Shown here: piece by piece, positions 3,803 to 52,755 of the stretch
Position numbering within the stretch: position 1 is the first letter of the stretch
How the letters are laid out: each line of letters opens with the position of its first letter
UHGV virus genome: UHGV-0141727
Length of the DNA stretch: 64,000 bases
From: a virus
Direction: 5' to 3' (one strand)
Notes under the pieces: model-generated
The model's input: the letters and a program-made list of their open reading frames with translations, nothing else
Databases searched by the model: none
Told to the model about the DNA's origin: nothing
Program-made: the position numbers and the translations under genes

Positions 3803-3864
3803 CAGATAGTTCCGTGAAAAATCTATCTACCGTATAAATCTATGCCAGTGGATTTATACACCCA

Positions 3865-3896
3865 AAAGCCGCTACTCAGCGGCTTTTGCTTTTTTG
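3865..3896 (+). terminator. intrinsic terminator-like hairpin AAAGCCGCT/AGCGGCTTT with T-tract on plus strand
   Basis: stem-loop followed by TTGCTTTTTTGG; no annotated plus-strand gene upstream. Confidence 0.35.
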
Positions 3897-4000
3897 GCAG
3901 TCGCTACCGGAGCAGTGACCGCGATCCTACTCGATCACGTGCCGTCGGATCAACAGTGTATAAAAACACACTGTGTTAGAAAATTAAGCTAGCTTTTAGC

Positions 4001-5012: not shown

Positions 5013-6698
5013 TTAATTATTGCTCATCACAAATTTTGCAAAGTTGATTAATTGTTCTTGCGTCCAGTTTTCCGGATCGTCACCGGACGACAACGGCGCG
5101 GATTCGTACATACCATGCTCGTTGTTTTGCTCTGATTCATTCGCCTTAAACTCTTTGATCATTACGTTGAGAGTGTCATCGTCGATACGAAGCTGTTCGG
5201 TGAACAGATAGCGCATAAACGCGTCGCTACCCGCCAGTTTCGGGTTGTTCTGGATCTGGTCCATTATTTGCGAGATGACAGCTACGAAGTTGGCGCGCGC
5301 ATCCAGCTCTCGGTTTTCCTCTTCCTGGATAGCTGTGTTCATTGAGTTGAATTGCACGTCATAAGGACGGTTTTTTTCGGTGTAAACCTTCCCGTATTTA
5401 TAAGCGAGGTGAATGTCATGAAGCCGATAAATAGTCCGCTGGGCGGCCTGTCTGATCCAGTTCGCGCGTAATGCGGCCTGGATAGCTGTTTGCTGCCAAC
5501 CGCCTTCTCCAAGCCCCCCACTCATCTGATCAGCCCAGCCAAGCATTGTTGCGTCAATGCCGAGGCTTGCCGCGAGCTGTCGGAGATGAAACATAACGTC
5601 TTCGATACCACTGATATCTGCGGGTATAGATTGCGTATCAATGGTGATCCCGTTCTTCCCATCCCCCATGACAGGTATCAGATGGTTAAGTACAGATGGG
5701 AGAGCATTAGAATTAATTGACCGTTGCGCTACGAGGTCGCTATGGCGCTTCAGTGCCTGGCTGACCCCGCGCGTATAATTCGCCGCGTTTACCGGATCTA
5801 TCGTGTTCGTTGTGAGTGCAATCAGGCGATCAATTTTTGCAGCGTTGTTTCGCGTTGCTTTCAGCGCAGCAAGCGCGGCACATAAATTCAGGTAGGGTTC
5901 ATAACTGTATTCAAGAAACGACGTACCGTAGTTCTGTGTCTCCATTAACGGCTTGTCCTGCTGTTCACTAAGCAAGGAATAGCCTGTAGTGCCGTAAGTT
6001 ACTGGCATTACTTTATGCTGAGGCGTCCAGTACGGGTTTTTCATGGAAACCAGATTCCACGGCTCGGTTATAACTCTGCGCAAAGTATGCGTGTCCAGAA
6101 TGTAATCACCGCTGAATCCGACAAGTTGGCTACCGCGATAAAACTCCTGAACGAAATGAGGGAGCGTGTAATAGCTCGACTCAATTCCAGTTATCCCCTT
6201 CCCTTGCTCTGCATATGGACGGATATACGACACACCGAAAATAGCCATGATCATGGCCCACGATGGAAGGCCATCATTAATCATTGAGCTTAAATCAGCG
6301 GTCAATTCCTCACATCGACTTACAGCCTCCTTATCCGCCCCATTTTTCGGAGCGAGAATAAATGCGAGGCCTGTTTTTTTTGATGGAGCCAGAGAATGCG
6401 CAATGTGAATGTTTAATGCTGTGGAGATAGTCGGACTTTTCGCCATCGTCTCCAGTATGTTGTATTTTTGCAGGCGGTCACTCGGTAATTCTGCCGATAT
6501 AGATACTGTATCCGCCGCGCTTGTCATTCCATCGCTATTGCTCCCCAGGATGCCTGGACGCAAGGCGGACAGGCCAGAACGAGCAACGACGCTATGCCCG
6601 CTCGCAAATACGACCGGATCGGCAGGCGTAACATCACCACCGCTGAAGGCTTTCTTCAATGCCGACAGAAAGCCCTTGTTTTTGTCTTTCGTTGCCAT
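5013..6698 (-). CDS. portal-like virion protein
   Basis: ORF 561 aa, portal-sized, first gene of head operon; assignment by size and synteny only. Confidence 0.35.
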   Translation of the reverse strand: MATKDKNKGFLSALKKAFSGGDVTPADPVVFASGHSVVARSGLSALRPGILGSNSDGMTSAADTVSISAELPSDRLQKYNILETMAKSPTISTALNIHIAHSLAPSKKTGLAFILAPKNGADKEAVSRCEELTADLSSMINDGLPSWAMIMAIFGVSYIRPYAEQGKGITGIESSYYTLPHFVQEFYRGSQLVGFSGDYILDTHTLRRVITEPWNLVSMKNPYWTPQHKVMPVTYGTTGYSLLSEQQDKPLMETQNYGTSFLEYSYEPYLNLCAALAALKATRNNAAKIDRLIALTTNTIDPVNAANYTRGVSQALKRHSDLVAQRSINSNALPSVLNHLIPVMGDGKNGITIDTQSIPADISGIEDVMFHLRQLAASLGIDATMLGWADQMSGGLGEGGWQQTAIQAALRANWIRQAAQRTIYRLHDIHLAYKYGKVYTEKNRPYDVQFNSMNTAIQEEENRELDARANFVAVISQIMDQIQNNPKLAGSDAFMRYLFTEQLRIDDDTLNVMIKEFKANESEQNNEHGMYESAPLSSGDDPENWTQEQLINFAKFVMSNN

Positions 6699-43832: not shown

Positions 43833-44600
43833 TTACCCCATTCTCAGAGAGGTTTCAGTAATAATTCGTTTCGCGTCCAGCTCCCAGGCGGTGATCACGT
43901 CTGCTATAACACTAATTGCCGTTTGTGCAGCATAAATACGCTCTTCCCCAATTGGGGCTGAAACATCAGTAAAACTGATGTCTTTAGCATCCTGAATCGC
44001 GCAAATTAGCGGGACGGGTACTCGTACCAGCGGGGTTGTTGCTTCAAACTGCGTTCCTGCCATCAAGCGAAGACGTGCTCCTAGCGAATTACACATCAGA
44101 CTCATGGTCGCCTTATCCGTCGCCATTAACGTAACGTCATACGTCAGATTTGCCTGGGTGTATTCCAGGGCTACTAAAGGCATACCGCTGCCAGGTTCGC
44201 AGAAGTGATCACAGCTTTTGCGGTCTATCTGCTGGTCATTGTTGATATAGCTGATATCCATTGAGCGCGAGATATTAATCAGAGGGAGCGCATCGCGATT
44301 AATGTTCGGATTCTCTGGCTTTCTCCCTTGCCCTGCATTAGCACGGCGAACCGCTTTAAGGAACTCGACCGCGTTATCAAAACGGGCAACATAAACACGC
44401 TCCGCTGGTGGGCGACTCAGGAATGATGCAAAGCGCCTTTCTTCTTTTGCTGGTTCCACCAGCGTTACGTCAGAAAAAATGTCGCTGATTAGCGTAGCAA
44501 AAGCGTTATCCACTCTTTCCAGACCAGTTGTCTGGAATTTTCCAGTACGCGTTGTCTGCCACTCGCCAATGCGGGACAGTAGAGTTTTGTTAGGTGTCAT
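43833..44600 (-). CDS. hypothetical virion protein
   Basis: ORF 255 aa. Confidence 0.3.
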   Translation of the reverse strand: MTPNKTLLSRIGEWQTTRTGKFQTTGLERVDNAFATLISDIFSDVTLVEPAKEERRFASFLSRPPAERVYVARFDNAVEFLKAVRRANAGQGRKPENPNINRDALPLINISRSMDISYINNDQQIDRKSCDHFCEPGSGMPLVALEYTQANLTYDVTLMATDKATMSLMCNSLGARLRLMAGTQFEATTPLVRVPVPLICAIQDAKDISFTDVSAPIGEERIYAAQTAISVIADVITAWELDAKRIITETSLRMG

Positions 44601-45403
44601 TCGATCACTCCGTTTTGAGTGGTATCAAAGTTCCTGGCCGGGATGCAGTAATAAAGGGAACCAACGTGTTGTGTTCCGTAGCTGAAGATTCGATGCACGT
44701 ACCACCAGCGGCGGGCGAGGCCATTCGCCATTTCTTCGTTCCATTCCAGGATTGAACCAACAGGTACGTTGTTTGCAGCAATACGCAGGATTAGCACTTC
44801 ATCAGCAAGACCATCCTGTTCTCCATCGGCATCAATGGCATGAAACGAATCCCTTCCGTCCGGGTTATCTAGGACGTATACGATTTCCGGTTCCAGATAG
44901 GTAAGCTCACGCTGGTTGTTGTCCAGTTGCGTGAAAGACTCTTCACCTGTTTCATCGTTTACGACGCCATAGGTGCCATCAGCCGGGCGATATAAAAGCG
45001 CCTCGAATGCGTCAGGGCTTGATTCAATAATAAGCATCCAATCGGCGCGGATCTGGTCGTTGAACGCTTTGTGTCCGTTATATCGGGTTTTAAGCTGCTG
45101 GTTTGGTTCTCTGTTTGCGAGCGATGCCGGTAGGGGAGCGATGTCAGGTTCAATCACTTCCGTAACAGAGTCACCAGCATTATCAGGCCAATTATCATGG
45201 CGGCTATCTGCTTCGGTGGCAGCGCGTTCTTCCAGAATACTGAATGGCCCTGTACTGACCTTCCCATTTTCCGTTGTGCTTCCTTCATTCGCTTCAACCG
45301 TCGTTGTCTCTTCTCTCTGCGTGCTGTCATGTTCTGTTCCCTTTCTCATCAGGCTTGCATCATCAGCAAGCCATTCATCAAAACGGCCCATAAGCGTCCT
45401 CAA
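44597..45403 (-). CDS. hypothetical acidic protein
   Basis: ORF 268 aa. Confidence 0.3.
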   Translation of the reverse strand: MRTLMGRFDEWLADDASLMRKGTEHDSTQREETTTVEANEGSTTENGKVSTGPFSILEERAATEADSRHDNWPDNAGDSVTEVIEPDIAPLPASLANREPNQQLKTRYNGHKAFNDQIRADWMLIIESSPDAFEALLYRPADGTYGVVNDETGEESFTQLDNNQRELTYLEPEIVYVLDNPDGRDSFHAIDADGEQDGLADEVLILRIAANNVPVGSILEWNEEMANGLARRWWYVHRIFSYGTQHVGSLYYCIPARNFDTTQNGVIE

Positions 45404-45540
45404 AGGTCGATTTATCAGGTATAGAGGGGAATTGTCTGGAGATTGTGATTTGTTTGTCGCCAGGTAATTTCTTTAGATTGATGAGGCGAAATCTATCGGA
45501 GGTGCGGTATCATTGTTCGGTCAGAACTTAAGGAGAAACA

Positions 45541-46080
45541 GTGAGTCAGGAAGTTGAAAAGTGGCGAGCATTTGAACACCCTGATGGTGTTATTCGTGAT
45601 TTGTCATTTCTTGACGCTCATCAGGCTGTGTTTGTTCAGCAACAAGAAGGAAAGCAACCGATAGAGTATCGCTTTTGGGTTACGTACTCTTTTCACTGCT
45701 TCACAAAAGACTATGCACACCAGACTGAGGAAGAGAAACTGGCGTTAATGTACCACGCCCCTAAAGAGTCTCGTCCATTTTGTGAGCGTCGCTATAATCT
45801 TGCCAAACTTCACTTAAAAGAGGCAATTCTGTCATTGTCGGAAGGTAAGGTGATCCATGCCGGATACGGAAGCTATGCCGTTATTGAGGTAAATATTGGG
45901 GAGGGTAACAAGGAGTATTATTTTGTTGCGTTTAAGGCTTTCAGGGAAAAGAAAAAGTTGCGGTTACACATCACTAGCGCCTACCCGGTATCAGAAAAAC
46001 CAAATGGCAGGTCAGTGAAGTTTTTCGCAATCGCATACAATCTGTTAAGGAACAAACCGCTTCCTAAGCCACCAAAATAA
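45541..46080 (+). CDS. orphan opposite-strand protein of unknown function
   Basis: 179-aa ORF, GTG start with AAGGAG RBS, own terminator. Confidence 0.4.
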   Translation: MSQEVEKWRAFEHPDGVIRDLSFLDAHQAVFVQQQEGKQPIEYRFWVTYSFHCFTKDYAHQTEEEKLALMYHAPKESRPFCERRYNLAKLHLKEAILSLSEGKVIHAGYGSYAVIEVNIGEGNKEYYFVAFKAFREKKKLRLHITSAYPVSEKPNGRSVKFFAIAYNLLRNKPLPKPPK

Positions 46081-46082
46081 CA

Positions 46083-46104
46083 AAGCCCACCTTAAGGTGG
46101 GCTT
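46083..46104. terminator. hairpin AAGCCCACC/GGTGGGCTT directly after 45541..46080
   Basis: 9-bp stem; T-tract on minus side. Confidence 0.45.
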
Positions 46105-46305
46105 CGCCAGAAATTATTTTCTGGTATTCAGAACGCCATTACCGGACTTTGCCTTGACCAAGTATCACAACTGGTTTGACCTGTTATGATAGCTGGTTGC
46201 GGGATGTCTGAATTTCTTCAGTCTGCTGCATCCTCGAAGGTTTGGTTCAACATGTACCATTCCTTCACCGTCATAATAGTGTACTATTCACGTCCTTGCA
46301 AACAC

Positions 46306-47511
46306 TTATACATTTTTTACGTTGTTCTTCACATACGCCATGAACATCTTTTCGGCTTGTGCTGGTGGTGTTCCTGCCATAACAAGCGCATCAATGAACG
46401 CCTGCTTCTTCAGTGCGAACTGATCAGCAAGGCGTTGCTGAAGTTCCTTGTTTTTCTGCTTCTCCCGTTGCAAAGCTGCTTCTTTTGCCGCTGCCCGTTT
46501 TTTCTGTGCGTCGGATAACTTTCTGGCCCTGGTCAGTTGGTCACGCAGCTTGTCGATCTTACCGTTGTCCTTTGCCAGTTTTGAGCTTAAAGCGGCCTGG
46601 CGTTTCTGATAGAGCTTCCATTCACGTTTAGCTGCCTCAACATTCGTTTTGCTGCTACGGTTTCGATTGAACGCCTTCTCGTCTTCTTTTGTGAAGTGTT
46701 TTGTCGTGCGGCGGCGATCGTCACCAAAGGCAACTTGCTTTGCAGCTTTTTGCAGGGCGCGAGCAATACTCATCTGCCAACTGGCAGACTGTAGTCGTGT
46801 CATTGAGTGGATCACATGTTTACAGGCGACGCCTTGCAGCTTAGGGTTGCGAACTTTTGGATAGGCGTATTCTTTTGGCGGGGCCAGGGCAAAGTTACCC
46901 GCAGTGGCGATGTAGCGATACCAGTATTGATGGCGACCGCAGTCACAGTCGAAAGACACTCGCCCGGCACACAGTGATTTTGTGACTTTCAGGGCTGATT
47001 TATCGTCTTCTGCGATGTCATCGACCATCTGATCCCATTCTTCAAAACGTACCCGGACAATGTGGTGCTGGTGAACGGATATATCGGACGCTTCCACGCG
47101 GATATTAATCACATTGTGACGAAGAGATACGGGCGTAGCTCTTTTGATACCAGAACCGTCGTCTACGGCGTTATTTGCTCGCTTAATATCGATAGCCTGG
47201 CTGGACGCTACCAGTTGTGCGTATGTGATGCCAGCCGTCTTGCTGTCATATTTTTCGCGTGCTTTGCTTCGCAGCTTTTCGAAGCCTTTCAGATCGTCAC
47301 GCGTAAAGAACGTGCCGCCTTTCTTTTTCCCCAGCTTAAGAATGTCTTCGGCTGATTTATTCCTAAGCCTGCCCGGCGTGAGTGTCCTGTGCGCCTGGCG
47401 GCGTTTGCGGTTTTGCTCTTTCCTGATGAGTTCAAATACGCGTGTGAAATCCTTAGAGGACAGACCGTTAGTGATATATCGCCCGTCCTGATTTTTCAGG
47501 AAGTCAGGCAT
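46306..47511 (-). CDS. SWIM-type zinc-finger protein with basic coiled-coil C-terminus
   Basis: 401-aa ORF; CxC...CxH pattern in FDCDCGRHQYW...ACKHV. Confidence 0.35.
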   Translation of the reverse strand: MPDFLKNQDGRYITNGLSSKDFTRVFELIRKEQNRKRRQAHRTLTPGRLRNKSAEDILKLGKKKGGTFFTRDDLKGFEKLRSKAREKYDSKTAGITYAQLVASSQAIDIKRANNAVDDGSGIKRATPVSLRHNVINIRVEASDISVHQHHIVRVRFEEWDQMVDDIAEDDKSALKVTKSLCAGRVSFDCDCGRHQYWYRYIATAGNFALAPPKEYAYPKVRNPKLQGVACKHVIHSMTRLQSASWQMSIARALQKAAKQVAFGDDRRRTTKHFTKEDEKAFNRNRSSKTNVEAAKREWKLYQKRQAALSSKLAKDNGKIDKLRDQLTRARKLSDAQKKRAAAKEAALQREKQKNKELQQRLADQFALKKQAFIDALVMAGTPPAQAEKMFMAYVKNNVKNV

Positions 47512-47925: not shown

Positions 47926-48207
47926 TTATGCGTGGGAAAATAATGGACGGATGTTTGGGCGAGCGGTTTGCGAAGCAACCCAAAGCTCATACTGGGATTG
48001 CATACCGGTCCACATTTCGGCACTGGTTCCAAGAGCGGACTCCAGACGAAGTGCCATATCAGCAGAAATACCTGTTTTTTCGTTCAGAATTCGGGAAAGT
48101 GCCGTGCGAGTAATGCCTAATGCAGCAGCTGCGTCTGTGACTGACATGTCTCCCAAATATTCACGAAGAACCGCGCCTGGATGCGCGGGATTATGCATAC
48201 GACTCAT
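47926..48207 (-). CDS. HigA/VapI-like HTH antitoxin
   Basis: 93-aa [14 protein letters not shown]...DMALRL. Confidence 0.55.
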
Positions 48208-48503
48208 ATGTGGAAAGCAACCCGTTTACCGGTTGGCAATTCAACGTCCAGACTCAACTTTCCACCCATAGCCTCAACGTAACGTTTAAGCGTTGCTACT
48301 TTCAAGTCATTGCCTCGTTGTTCAAGTTTTGTGATGGCTGGTTGACTAATTCCCATCGCATCGGCAACTGTTTTTTGTGATAACTGAAGCTCCTCTCTCA
48401 ACATCTGCAATCCGACTTCCAGAATCATTTCATCAGCCTGCTCTTTGATACGAGCTTGGCTTTCAGGGGATTGCGCAGCAATAACTTCTCTTAGAGTTCT
48501 CAT
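48204..48503 (-). CDS. XRE-type HTH antitoxin-like protein
   Basis: 99-aa ORF with HTH, immediately downstream of RelE/HigB-like gene. Confidence 0.5.
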
Positions 48504-52459: not shown

Positions 52460-52620
52460 ACTAAGTTAAGGAGCTACCGCGTGAGGTTCCAATCTCAATG
52501 GCGGTAGCACTGACTGGGTTGGAACTACCGGCGTCAAAGGGAACCGGCCTGCCTTTCGGCAGCCCAGCCAGCACTACCATTGATCTCTGAGCTAAACGCT
52601 ACGTATGGCTGTGCGATGGC
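52460..52620 (-). ncRNA. candidate c4-like antisense/leader RNA region upstream of icd (inference only)
   Basis: ORF-free structured region between a terminator and icd; position analogous to P1 c4. Confidence 0.2.
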
Positions 52621-52624
52621 ATGA

Positions 52625-52651
52625 CACAAAAAAAGACGCTTTCGGCGTCTG
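52625..52651 (-). terminator. intrinsic terminator AGACGC/GCGTCT plus T7 on minus strand
   Basis: hairpin immediately followed by TTTTTTTGTG. Confidence 0.55.
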
Positions 52652-52755
52652 TGTCGCCTTTGACATTATCCGGGGTTCCAATCCCGGCACCCGTTTTTCT
52701 AAGGTGCCGTAGAAATATACCCCACGATAATGCCAGGGCGCAACTGTGTGTTTTC

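Follow-up and report, generated by a model that had tools for sequence, protein, structure and literature searches.

The window analysed here, a 64,000-nt stretch of the virus genome UHGV-0141727, harbours a cassette of about 0.8 kb (roughly positions 45453–46302) that, as read from sequence and alignments, is composed of the gene for a basic 179-amino-acid protein, YjaZ, and a convergent structured RNA of about 125–190 nt, SroH. Both families to which this copy belongs were known before; the novelty lies in their forming one conserved, mobile and phylum-spanning protein–RNA unit with a multi-helix RNA. We propose, with a probability of roughly 0.55, that YjaZ–SroH is a protein–RNA cassette resembling addiction or toxin–antitoxin modules, in which SroH would act as the obligate partner of YjaZ. 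No paper linking yjaZ and sroH was found in our literature search, which was incomplete, and an earlier description is possible.

A sequence-only reading of this region had reported a plus-strand open reading frame (ORF) for 179 amino acids with a GTG start, located between minus-strand genes and preceded by an AAGGAG ribosome-binding site. Both features were recovered in our analysis (Table 1), and E. coli chromosomal yjaZ shows the sequence TAAGGA at the equivalent upstream position. The same reading recognised no family for the protein and was wrong on this point: the product matched the NCBIfam equivalog NF007263, 'stationary phase growth adaptation protein YjaZ', over its full length (residues 1–179 of 179) with 332.9 bits against a cutoff of 324, and Pfam PF27200 (YjaZ) was assigned to all 120 homologues listed, out of 146 found. 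The local Pfam scan remained empty because PF27200 postdates the local Pfam copy; PADLOC and PHROGs likewise gave no match for the window protein, a profile search of PDB sequences returned chance matches only, and a tblastn search against 50,697 phage records retrieved no match. All residues that were invariant in a 40-sequence family alignment (for example Y49, H52, C53, F54, R141, H143, S146 and A147) are present in the window protein. In E. coli, yjaZ (htrC) lies between rpoC and thiH, and approximately 69% of the complete genomes (3,739 of 5,426) contain a match. The window gene shares about 76% nucleotide and 75% protein identity with the E. coli chromosomal gene, and about 80% over the stretch aligned in the genome search.

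Directly behind the gene, 2 nt past its stop codon, a perfect palindrome of 11 + 11 nt (AAGCCCACCTT/AAGGTGGGCTT) occupies positions 46083–46104. Together with the next hairpin it folds at –25.8 kcal/mol (z = –7.2 compared to shuffled sequences). The strong hairpin that had been noticed after the stop is thus real, but its assignment as the terminator of yjaZ did not hold: a terminator scan scored it on the minus strand only (46109..46078, with the U-rich tail TTTTGGTGGC), and on the plus strand no T-run follows it. Furthermore, when the window was aligned to the E. coli chromosome and to a Raoultella phage-plasmid, the 3′ flank proved much better conserved than the yjaZ coding sequence. In Rfam this flank corresponds to the small RNA SroH (RF00372, model positions 1–161 of 161; 113 bits, E = 1.2e-25, with the gathering score at 80), the U-tract of which overlaps the yjaZ stop codon. 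A purpose-built covariance model, R1, placed the RNA at 46273..46077 with 121.8 bits. The hairpin is, by these predictions, the intrinsic terminator of SroH. A sigma-70-like promoter predicted for SroH directly follows the stop codon of the neighbouring tail gene, and a promoter-like site was found upstream of the first helix in 36 of 46 non-redundant elements, the mean best score being 9.3 as compared to 7.3 in shuffled sequences. Upstream of yjaZ on the plus strand, the scan detected no sigma-70-like promoter at its threshold. Since the hairpin forms the 3′ end of SroH and a promoter-like site lies on the minus strand, the unit extends some 200 nt past the end of the interval originally delimited. 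A weak full-length match to the SroH covariance model elsewhere in the window (3863–3994, minus strand, 13.5 bits, rough E = 0.016) is probably noise.

We then compared YjaZ loci from one-genome-per-species and viral collections. This protein-first sample was retrieved via intact protein motifs and is biased against decayed yjaZ copies. In 10 of 11 enterobacterial loci, chromosomal or plasmid-borne and including a ColE1 plasmid of 2462 bp, Rfam located sroH immediately behind the yjaZ homologue; in the Raoultella copy, the P3 region contains an insertion of about 90 nt that keeps the score below the Rfam threshold, and this RNA was detected by nhmmer and by model R1. With an nhmmer profile built from the enterobacterial matches, an SroH-like element was found beside the YjaZ gene in each of the 85 loci scored, and YjaZ without an SroH-like RNA was not seen among them. 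The RNA was convergent and single-copy in 84 loci; in 83 it lay on the opposite strand 2–44 nt past the yjaZ stop, and in another at a distance of 159 nt. The sole rearranged locus of the 85 stems from a Thiomargarita metagenome assembly (locus L089), in which the SroH-like RNA (5720–5863, plus strand) is located upstream of yjaZ (5905–6525, plus strand) in tandem orientation. Hosts included Enterobacterales, Aeromonas, Pseudomonas, Actinobacillus, Psychrobacter, Glaciecola, many cyanobacteria, Deinococcales, Planctomycetota and Woeseiaceae, and the YjaZ proteins of the non-enterobacterial hosts were 42–50% identical to that of the window. Clustering of the ORFs within 4 kb, combined with Pfam annotation of the 135 nearest neighbours, disclosed no conserved protein-coding neighbour among 88 loci; in particular, no adjacent gene for a protein antitoxin was conserved in this set. 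Even a paralogue with only 26% identity, encoded on Klebsiella IncF plasmids, is followed 5 nt past its stop by a divergent SroH-like element, which was detected by the covariance model only (full-length match, 18 bits, rough E = 5e-4). Judged from this distribution, yjaZ and SroH stay together both in inheritance and in horizontal transfer.

The RNA itself turned out to be highly structured. RNAalifold analysis of 46 non-redundant SroH-like elements, evaluated against 500 shuffles, yielded seven helices with 33 pairs in total, in agreement with the helices first read by eye. Paired cells amounted to 98.8%, compared to 84.3% after column shuffling and 32–43% when the pairing partners were slid. 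Compensatory changes occurred in 22 of the 33 pairs, and none of the 500 shuffles attained any of the observed measures. The fit was also better for the SroH strand (98.8%) than for the opposite strand (94.1%), and one G·U pair was retained in 44 of the 46 sequences. This pair resides in helix P5, the extended terminator stem, all ten pairs of which are kept across the 46 sequences, six of them with compensatory changes. The long-range helix Px encloses the variable hairpin P3 and the conserved strings UCGAGG and CCGGUAA; its outer three pairs all covary (CGU/ACG, CGC/GCG, CAC/GUG, CAU/AUG, AGU/ACU). Helix P1 encloses a near-invariant CAGCAGA and the hairpin P2 (CUGAA-GAAA-UUCAG, compensatory changes in four of five pairs). 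Several junction strings along the molecule are near-invariant: CAGCAGA, GACAUCCCG, UCGAGG, CCGGUAA, UUCUGAAUACC and GGCGAAG. The Rfam model RF00372 annotates the terminator stem alone, and no other Rfam family covers the cyanobacterial SroH-like copies. In nine comparisons, identity to the window was 77–89% for the RNA versus 56–76% for the coding sequence, indicating that SroH RNA is more strongly constrained than the YjaZ coding sequence. No tandem repeats were found in SroH, and no meaningful direct repeats flank the cassette, none suggesting a site-specific element. Three further candidates were discarded. With a 15-nt inverted repeat shared by the yjaZ coding sequence and sroH, the two transcripts resemble each other instead of being complementary; short ORFs noticed by eye in the window copy of SroH, as would be needed for a small peptide, are absent from E. 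coli and other lineages; and a resemblance of the junction strings to the 530 loop of 16S rRNA came down to two shared 6-mers, estimated to be chance expectation.

Decay of the two partners appeared asymmetric. An RNA-first sample, assembled with an exact core pattern from viral and metagenome collections, comprised 84 loci. An adjacent YjaZ was present in 65 of them, about seven being frameshifted or truncated, and was missing from 14 despite sufficient room on the contig (two of these having a YjaZ 1.3 kb off). In four loci the RNA was situated at the contig end, and one locus gave no profile RNA match. Altogether, yjaZ was truncated or absent beside the RNA in about a quarter of the RNA-first loci. 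In E. coli O157:H7 (locus L095, 2101–2741), for instance, 'protein HtrC' is reduced to 147 amino acids, without the KKKLRLHxTSAYP strand and the C-terminus, and the sroH gene is intact and scores the same as the K-12 copy. The occurrence of RNA without intact YjaZ, but not of YjaZ without RNA, would be expected if the protein were harmful in the absence of its RNA. This argument is circumstantial: frameshifts in metagenomes are possibly assembly errors, and the protein-first set was chosen via intact motifs.

In some of the 14 loci lacking an adjacent YjaZ, other gene pairs were encountered at the yjaZ position. A RelB plus RelE/ParE pair lies there, convergent with the SroH-like RNA, in four loci, L107 (13455–14316), L126, L165 and L179, and a DUF433 plus DUF5615 (PIN-like) pair takes this convergent position in locus L102 (4384–5293).

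The cassette also travels on plasmids. By tblastn, YjaZ relatives were located on 557 PLSDB plasmid records, about 43 of them at a minimum of 50% identity and the rest mostly representing the distant Klebsiella paralogue. On ColE1 plasmids of 2462 bp, yjaZ–sroH is the main cargo, and a survey of ColE1-type plasmids listed htrC among the genes captured by such replicons. One of these plasmids, pB1022 of Proteus mirabilis (locus L092, 2462 bp), contains little beyond the RNAI origin region and yjaZ–sroH, as do same-length plasmids in E. coli and Klebsiella; the yjaZ gene of pB1022 is annotated as two fragments. Among the approximately 370 matching Klebsiella records in PLSDB, most carry the 26%-identical paralogue, in which the HCF and RxH..SA motifs are found. 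On a Klebsiella pneumoniae IncFIB/IncFII plasmid (locus L097, 4983–5726), this paralogue adjoins a restriction-endonuclease fragment and an IS5-family element.

The window represents a D6-like phage-plasmid, a relative of P1, and over the 4 kb queried its identity was 83.7% with phage D6 and 99.4% with the E. coli plasmid pEC361_3. According to the ORF list, yjaZ is flanked by the minus-strand genes 44597–45403 and 46306–47511, which match tail/baseplate genes of phage D6, one P1 gene 7-like and the other gene 25-like. In this interval, D6 and most relatives carry a RelE/HigB toxin gene, HigA antitoxin genes and a hypothetical gene instead. The yjaZ–sroH cassette was present in five of the 121 plasmid matches that the region gave in complete E. 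coli genomes. In a phage-plasmid of Raoultella ornithinolytica (locus L003, 8001–13394), the same tail-gene slot holds yjaZ and SroH, followed by umuD/umuC-like genes and a helix-turn-helix (HTH) gene, and in one relative from IMG/VR it accommodates both cargo sets, yjaZ–sroH and the HigB/HigA type. Among D6-like elements, homology begins with the gene 7-like gene and extends up to and including GGGAGATTGTGATTT, beyond which it is lost, setting the left junction at about 45452; GGGAGATTGTGATTT may serve as a promoter or regulatory element for the minus-strand gene 7-like tail gene. The yjaZ–sroH cassette is accessory cargo within the virion block of a D6-like phage-plasmid, as the sequence-only reading had supposed for the protein gene, and the patchy occupancy of the slot speaks against a universally conserved gene with a structural role. 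A putative defence, exclusion or addiction role fits the context.

Table 1 Features of the yjaZ–sroH cassette and its surroundings in the window (64,000 nt)
Feature	Position	Strand	Details
Left edge of variable cargo slot	45438..45452		Alignment of the window with D6, the Raoultella phage-plasmid and the IMG/VR relative
Shine–Dalgarno sequence AAGGAG	45530..45535	+	Read from sequence; 5 nt ahead of the yjaZ GTG
yjaZ/htrC-family gene	45541..46080	+	179 amino acids, GTG start, predicted isoelectric point (pI) 9.3; ORF list, NF007263
Helix P5, extended terminator stem	46081..46106	–	CGAAG-CCCAC...GUGGG-CUUUG; the hairpin noticed in the sequence-only reading
Helix P4, hairpin	46107..46124	–	CCAGAAA...UUUCUGG; seven pairs, six compensatory
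Helix Px, long-range	46134..46201	–	CGC.ACC ... GGU....GCG; six pairs
Helix P1	46202..46233	–	GGAUG/CAUCC; compensatory changes in 3/5 pairs
SroH-family small RNA	46267..46082	–	Rfam RF00372, convergent with yjaZ
Predicted sigma-70-like promoter for SroH	46302..46273	–	TTGCAA, 17 nt, TATTAT; promoter scan

A few other features of the phage-plasmids were recorded. In the Raoultella phage-plasmid, a HicA/HicB pair is located further along, outside the tail genes that bound the slot. In the window, two tandem ORFs of 93 and 99 amino acids at 47926–48503 (minus strand) both score as HTH_3 (HigA-like). As pEC361_3 has an annotated RelE/ParE toxin at the second position, the window departs from its nearest relative just past the slot. 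An Rfam scan of the window further returned two separate matches to the C4 antisense RNA, with 77 and 72 bits. One adjoins an isrK-like RNA and the other a c4-a1b1 target element, the C4 and partner elements all residing on the minus strand (52497–52584, 52629–52707, 2475–2560 and 2628–2680). The two sites have the appearance of a pair of P1-type immunity (immI-like) loci within the 64 kb of the window.

An AlphaFold2 model of the window YjaZ was obtained with a predicted local distance difference test score (pLDDT) of 90 and a predicted template modelling score (pTM) of 0.86. The best Foldseek match of this model was HigB2 (E = 0.034), with scores in the twilight zone. In layout, the model recalls RelE, ParE, HigB and YoeB, with a helix followed by an antiparallel sheet and conserved Arg, His and Tyr residues on the last strand, and the HigB/RelE genes of relatives occupy the very slot in which yjaZ is found. 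YjaZ differs from these toxins in an extra N-terminal half of about 80 amino acids and in the lack of a protein antitoxin alongside. Neither the window protein nor any of 40 family members gave a Pfam match at E values up to 10, and no sequence profile connected YjaZ with the RelE/ParE superfamily. H52, R141, H143 and S146, which are invariant, and the near-invariant Y148 are conserved candidates for an active site. As a weak inference, YjaZ may be a RelE-like RNase with an active site made up of these five residues.

If SroH is the obligate partner of YjaZ, its action could follow one of two routes. SroH may bind YjaZ directly, as type III RNA antitoxins bind their toxins; in favour of this route are the invariant nucleotides at the junctions, the elaborateness of the fold, the variant in tandem order and the missing pairing with the 5′ region. 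Alternatively, yjaZ transcripts that continue beyond the shared hairpin may be the pairing target of SroH, resembling 3′-overlapping type I systems; the convergent overlap at the yjaZ stop codon, which is near-universal, speaks for this second route. The pair would then constitute a self-contained addiction or toxin–antitoxin-like module that aids the persistence of its carrier replicon, with phage exclusion as a possible further effect. A bolder version, which we put forward tentatively and regard as doubtful, holds that YjaZ–SroH is a new phylum-spanning, two-part selfish or defence module in which SroH directly neutralises or guides YjaZ acting as a RelE-like RNase. If true, two E. coli orphans, htrC/yjaZ and sroH, would be given a function, the RNA-antitoxin systems would gain a new architecture, and the carriage of the cassette on ColE1 plasmids, IncF plasmids and P1/D6-like phage-plasmids would be explained.

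Four observations weigh against a toxin–antitoxin-like cassette. Deletions of yjaZ (used as a linked marker) and of sroH are both viable in E. coli K-12; in the laboratory, SroH therefore does not behave as an essential antitoxin. Pairing of SroH with the 5′ region of yjaZ was predicted to be no better than that of shuffled sequences, a weak result since the tool gave unrealistically long duplexes. The single tandem case, in Thiomargarita, argues against a purely cis-antisense mechanism. Lastly, the neighbours of yjaZ are not clearly defence-island genes.

A serious rival, which we nevertheless judge unlikely, is a non-toxic ribonucleoprotein or regulatory pair. YjaZ would bind, stabilise or process SroH, loosely like FinO with FinP or Ro with Y RNA, and the pair would tune host physiology, e.g., under envelope or stationary-phase stress, to the benefit of its carrier. 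This view draws on the same evidence of coupling between the two genes and of RNA structure. In the literature, SroH is an RNA of unknown function that is polyadenylated and bound by PNPase; envelope-stress sensitivity was reported for an sroH deletion, and in vitro the RNA bound kbl mRNA, findings that agree with a regulatory pair, as do the viability of the single deletions and the basic character of YjaZ (pI 9.3). The tandem order in Thiomargarita also suggests a trans-acting partnership. On the other hand, a regulatory pair poorly explains why yjaZ–sroH is the main cargo of 2.4-kb ColE1 plasmids, and it leaves unexplained both the alternation with toxin–antitoxin genes in the phage-plasmid slot and the decay of the protein while the RNA persists. 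Moreover, a host-specific regulatory target would be hard to square with transfer between phyla.

It is improbable that YjaZ and SroH are independent neighbours, that is, a stress protein and an unrelated envelope-stress RNA that share a bidirectional terminator and hitch-hike together. The historical names ('heat shock', 'stationary phase adaptation') and annotations would be in line with such a view, and SroH phenotypes have been reported without mention of yjaZ, which itself figures in the literature mainly as a linked marker. However, according to a y-ome review the original heat-shock designation of htrC was retracted, and independent genes would hardly stand side by side in 85 of 85 loci from different phyla without sharing any further conserved neighbour, be transferred jointly onto plasmids and phage-plasmids, or keep a divergent partner RNA even beside a 26%-identical paralogue.

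The sequence-only reading had favoured a stand-alone protein gene, a moron that brings along a ribosome-binding site and a terminator and is of the type that often codes for superinfection-exclusion or for defence and counter-defence functions. This idea is hardly tenable, as yjaZ proved to be half of a conserved protein–RNA pair. The ribosome-binding site is present and the distribution is that of an accessory slot: among relatives, the cassette is present or absent at one site (5/121, with other cargo in D6 and in Raoultella). Nonetheless, the promoter and terminator scan of the window, at its threshold, yielded no promoter and terminator belonging to the protein gene, the hairpin belongs to the convergent SroH and lacks a plus-strand T-run, the gene was never found without the RNA in the loci sampled, and neither PADLOC, PHROGs nor the 50,697 phage records gave a match.

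A role of the 3′ element at the DNA level, for instance in recombination or mobilisation, or as the 3′ untranslated region of yjaZ, rather than as an RNA of the antisense strand, can almost be dismissed: the element always sits at the end of yjaZ and the cassette is mobile, but covariation preserves pairs over sequence with G·U pairs that suit the SroH strand only, most lineages possess a promoter-like site for that strand, SroH of E. coli is a detected transcript, and flanking repeats of the site-specific-element type are lacking.

With the toxin–antitoxin-like cassette as the leading proposal, two orphan annotations in the best-studied bacterium are combined into a single testable hypothesis, namely an RNA-partnered toxin or a ribonucleoprotein. 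The comparison also corrects the Rfam picture of SroH as an enterobacterial RNA with a terminator stem only, and adds a new kind of cargo to the variable slot of P1/D6-like phage-plasmids besides the classical HigBA modules.

Among known systems, type I toxin–antitoxin modules with convergent, 3′-overlapping RNA antitoxins, such as TxpA/RatA and BsrG/SR4 of B. subtilis, offer one parallel. Here too, transcription of yjaZ and SroH converges and their 3′ ends overlap, the unit is mobile and patchily distributed, and the protein decays where the RNA persists. In contrast to the short hydrophobic peptides of type I systems, YjaZ is a soluble basic protein of 179 amino acids, the toxicity of which is putative. 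The assured overlap between yjaZ and SroH is limited to the terminator and stop-codon region, the conserved junctions and long-range helices of SroH exceed what an antisense RNA needs, and one lineage has the tandem arrangement. Type III toxin–antitoxin systems (ToxIN, CptIN and TenpIN) reside on plasmids and can function in abortive infection or addiction. The proposed logic would be similar, in that a structured RNA directly neutralises a protein of about 170–180 amino acids with a possible RNase fold. The hallmark of ToxIN-like systems, an RNA of tandem repeats upstream on the same strand, was not found in SroH, which is a single-copy RNA without a tandem-repeat array, with its own predicted promoter and usually convergent with its partner gene; YjaZ, in turn, differs in having no sequence match to PADLOC models. 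The closest counterpart is yjaZ–sroH of E. coli K-12, the two genes of which have always been annotated and studied separately and are both counted as being of unknown function. The window copy differs from it by its location among the tail/baseplate genes of a phage-plasmid, by a GTG instead of an ATG start codon, and by a longer P3 region in its RNA. Both copies share the same two families in the same convergent order, with the RNA starting 2 nt past the stop codon, and are about 75% identical in the protein and about 89% identical in the RNA.

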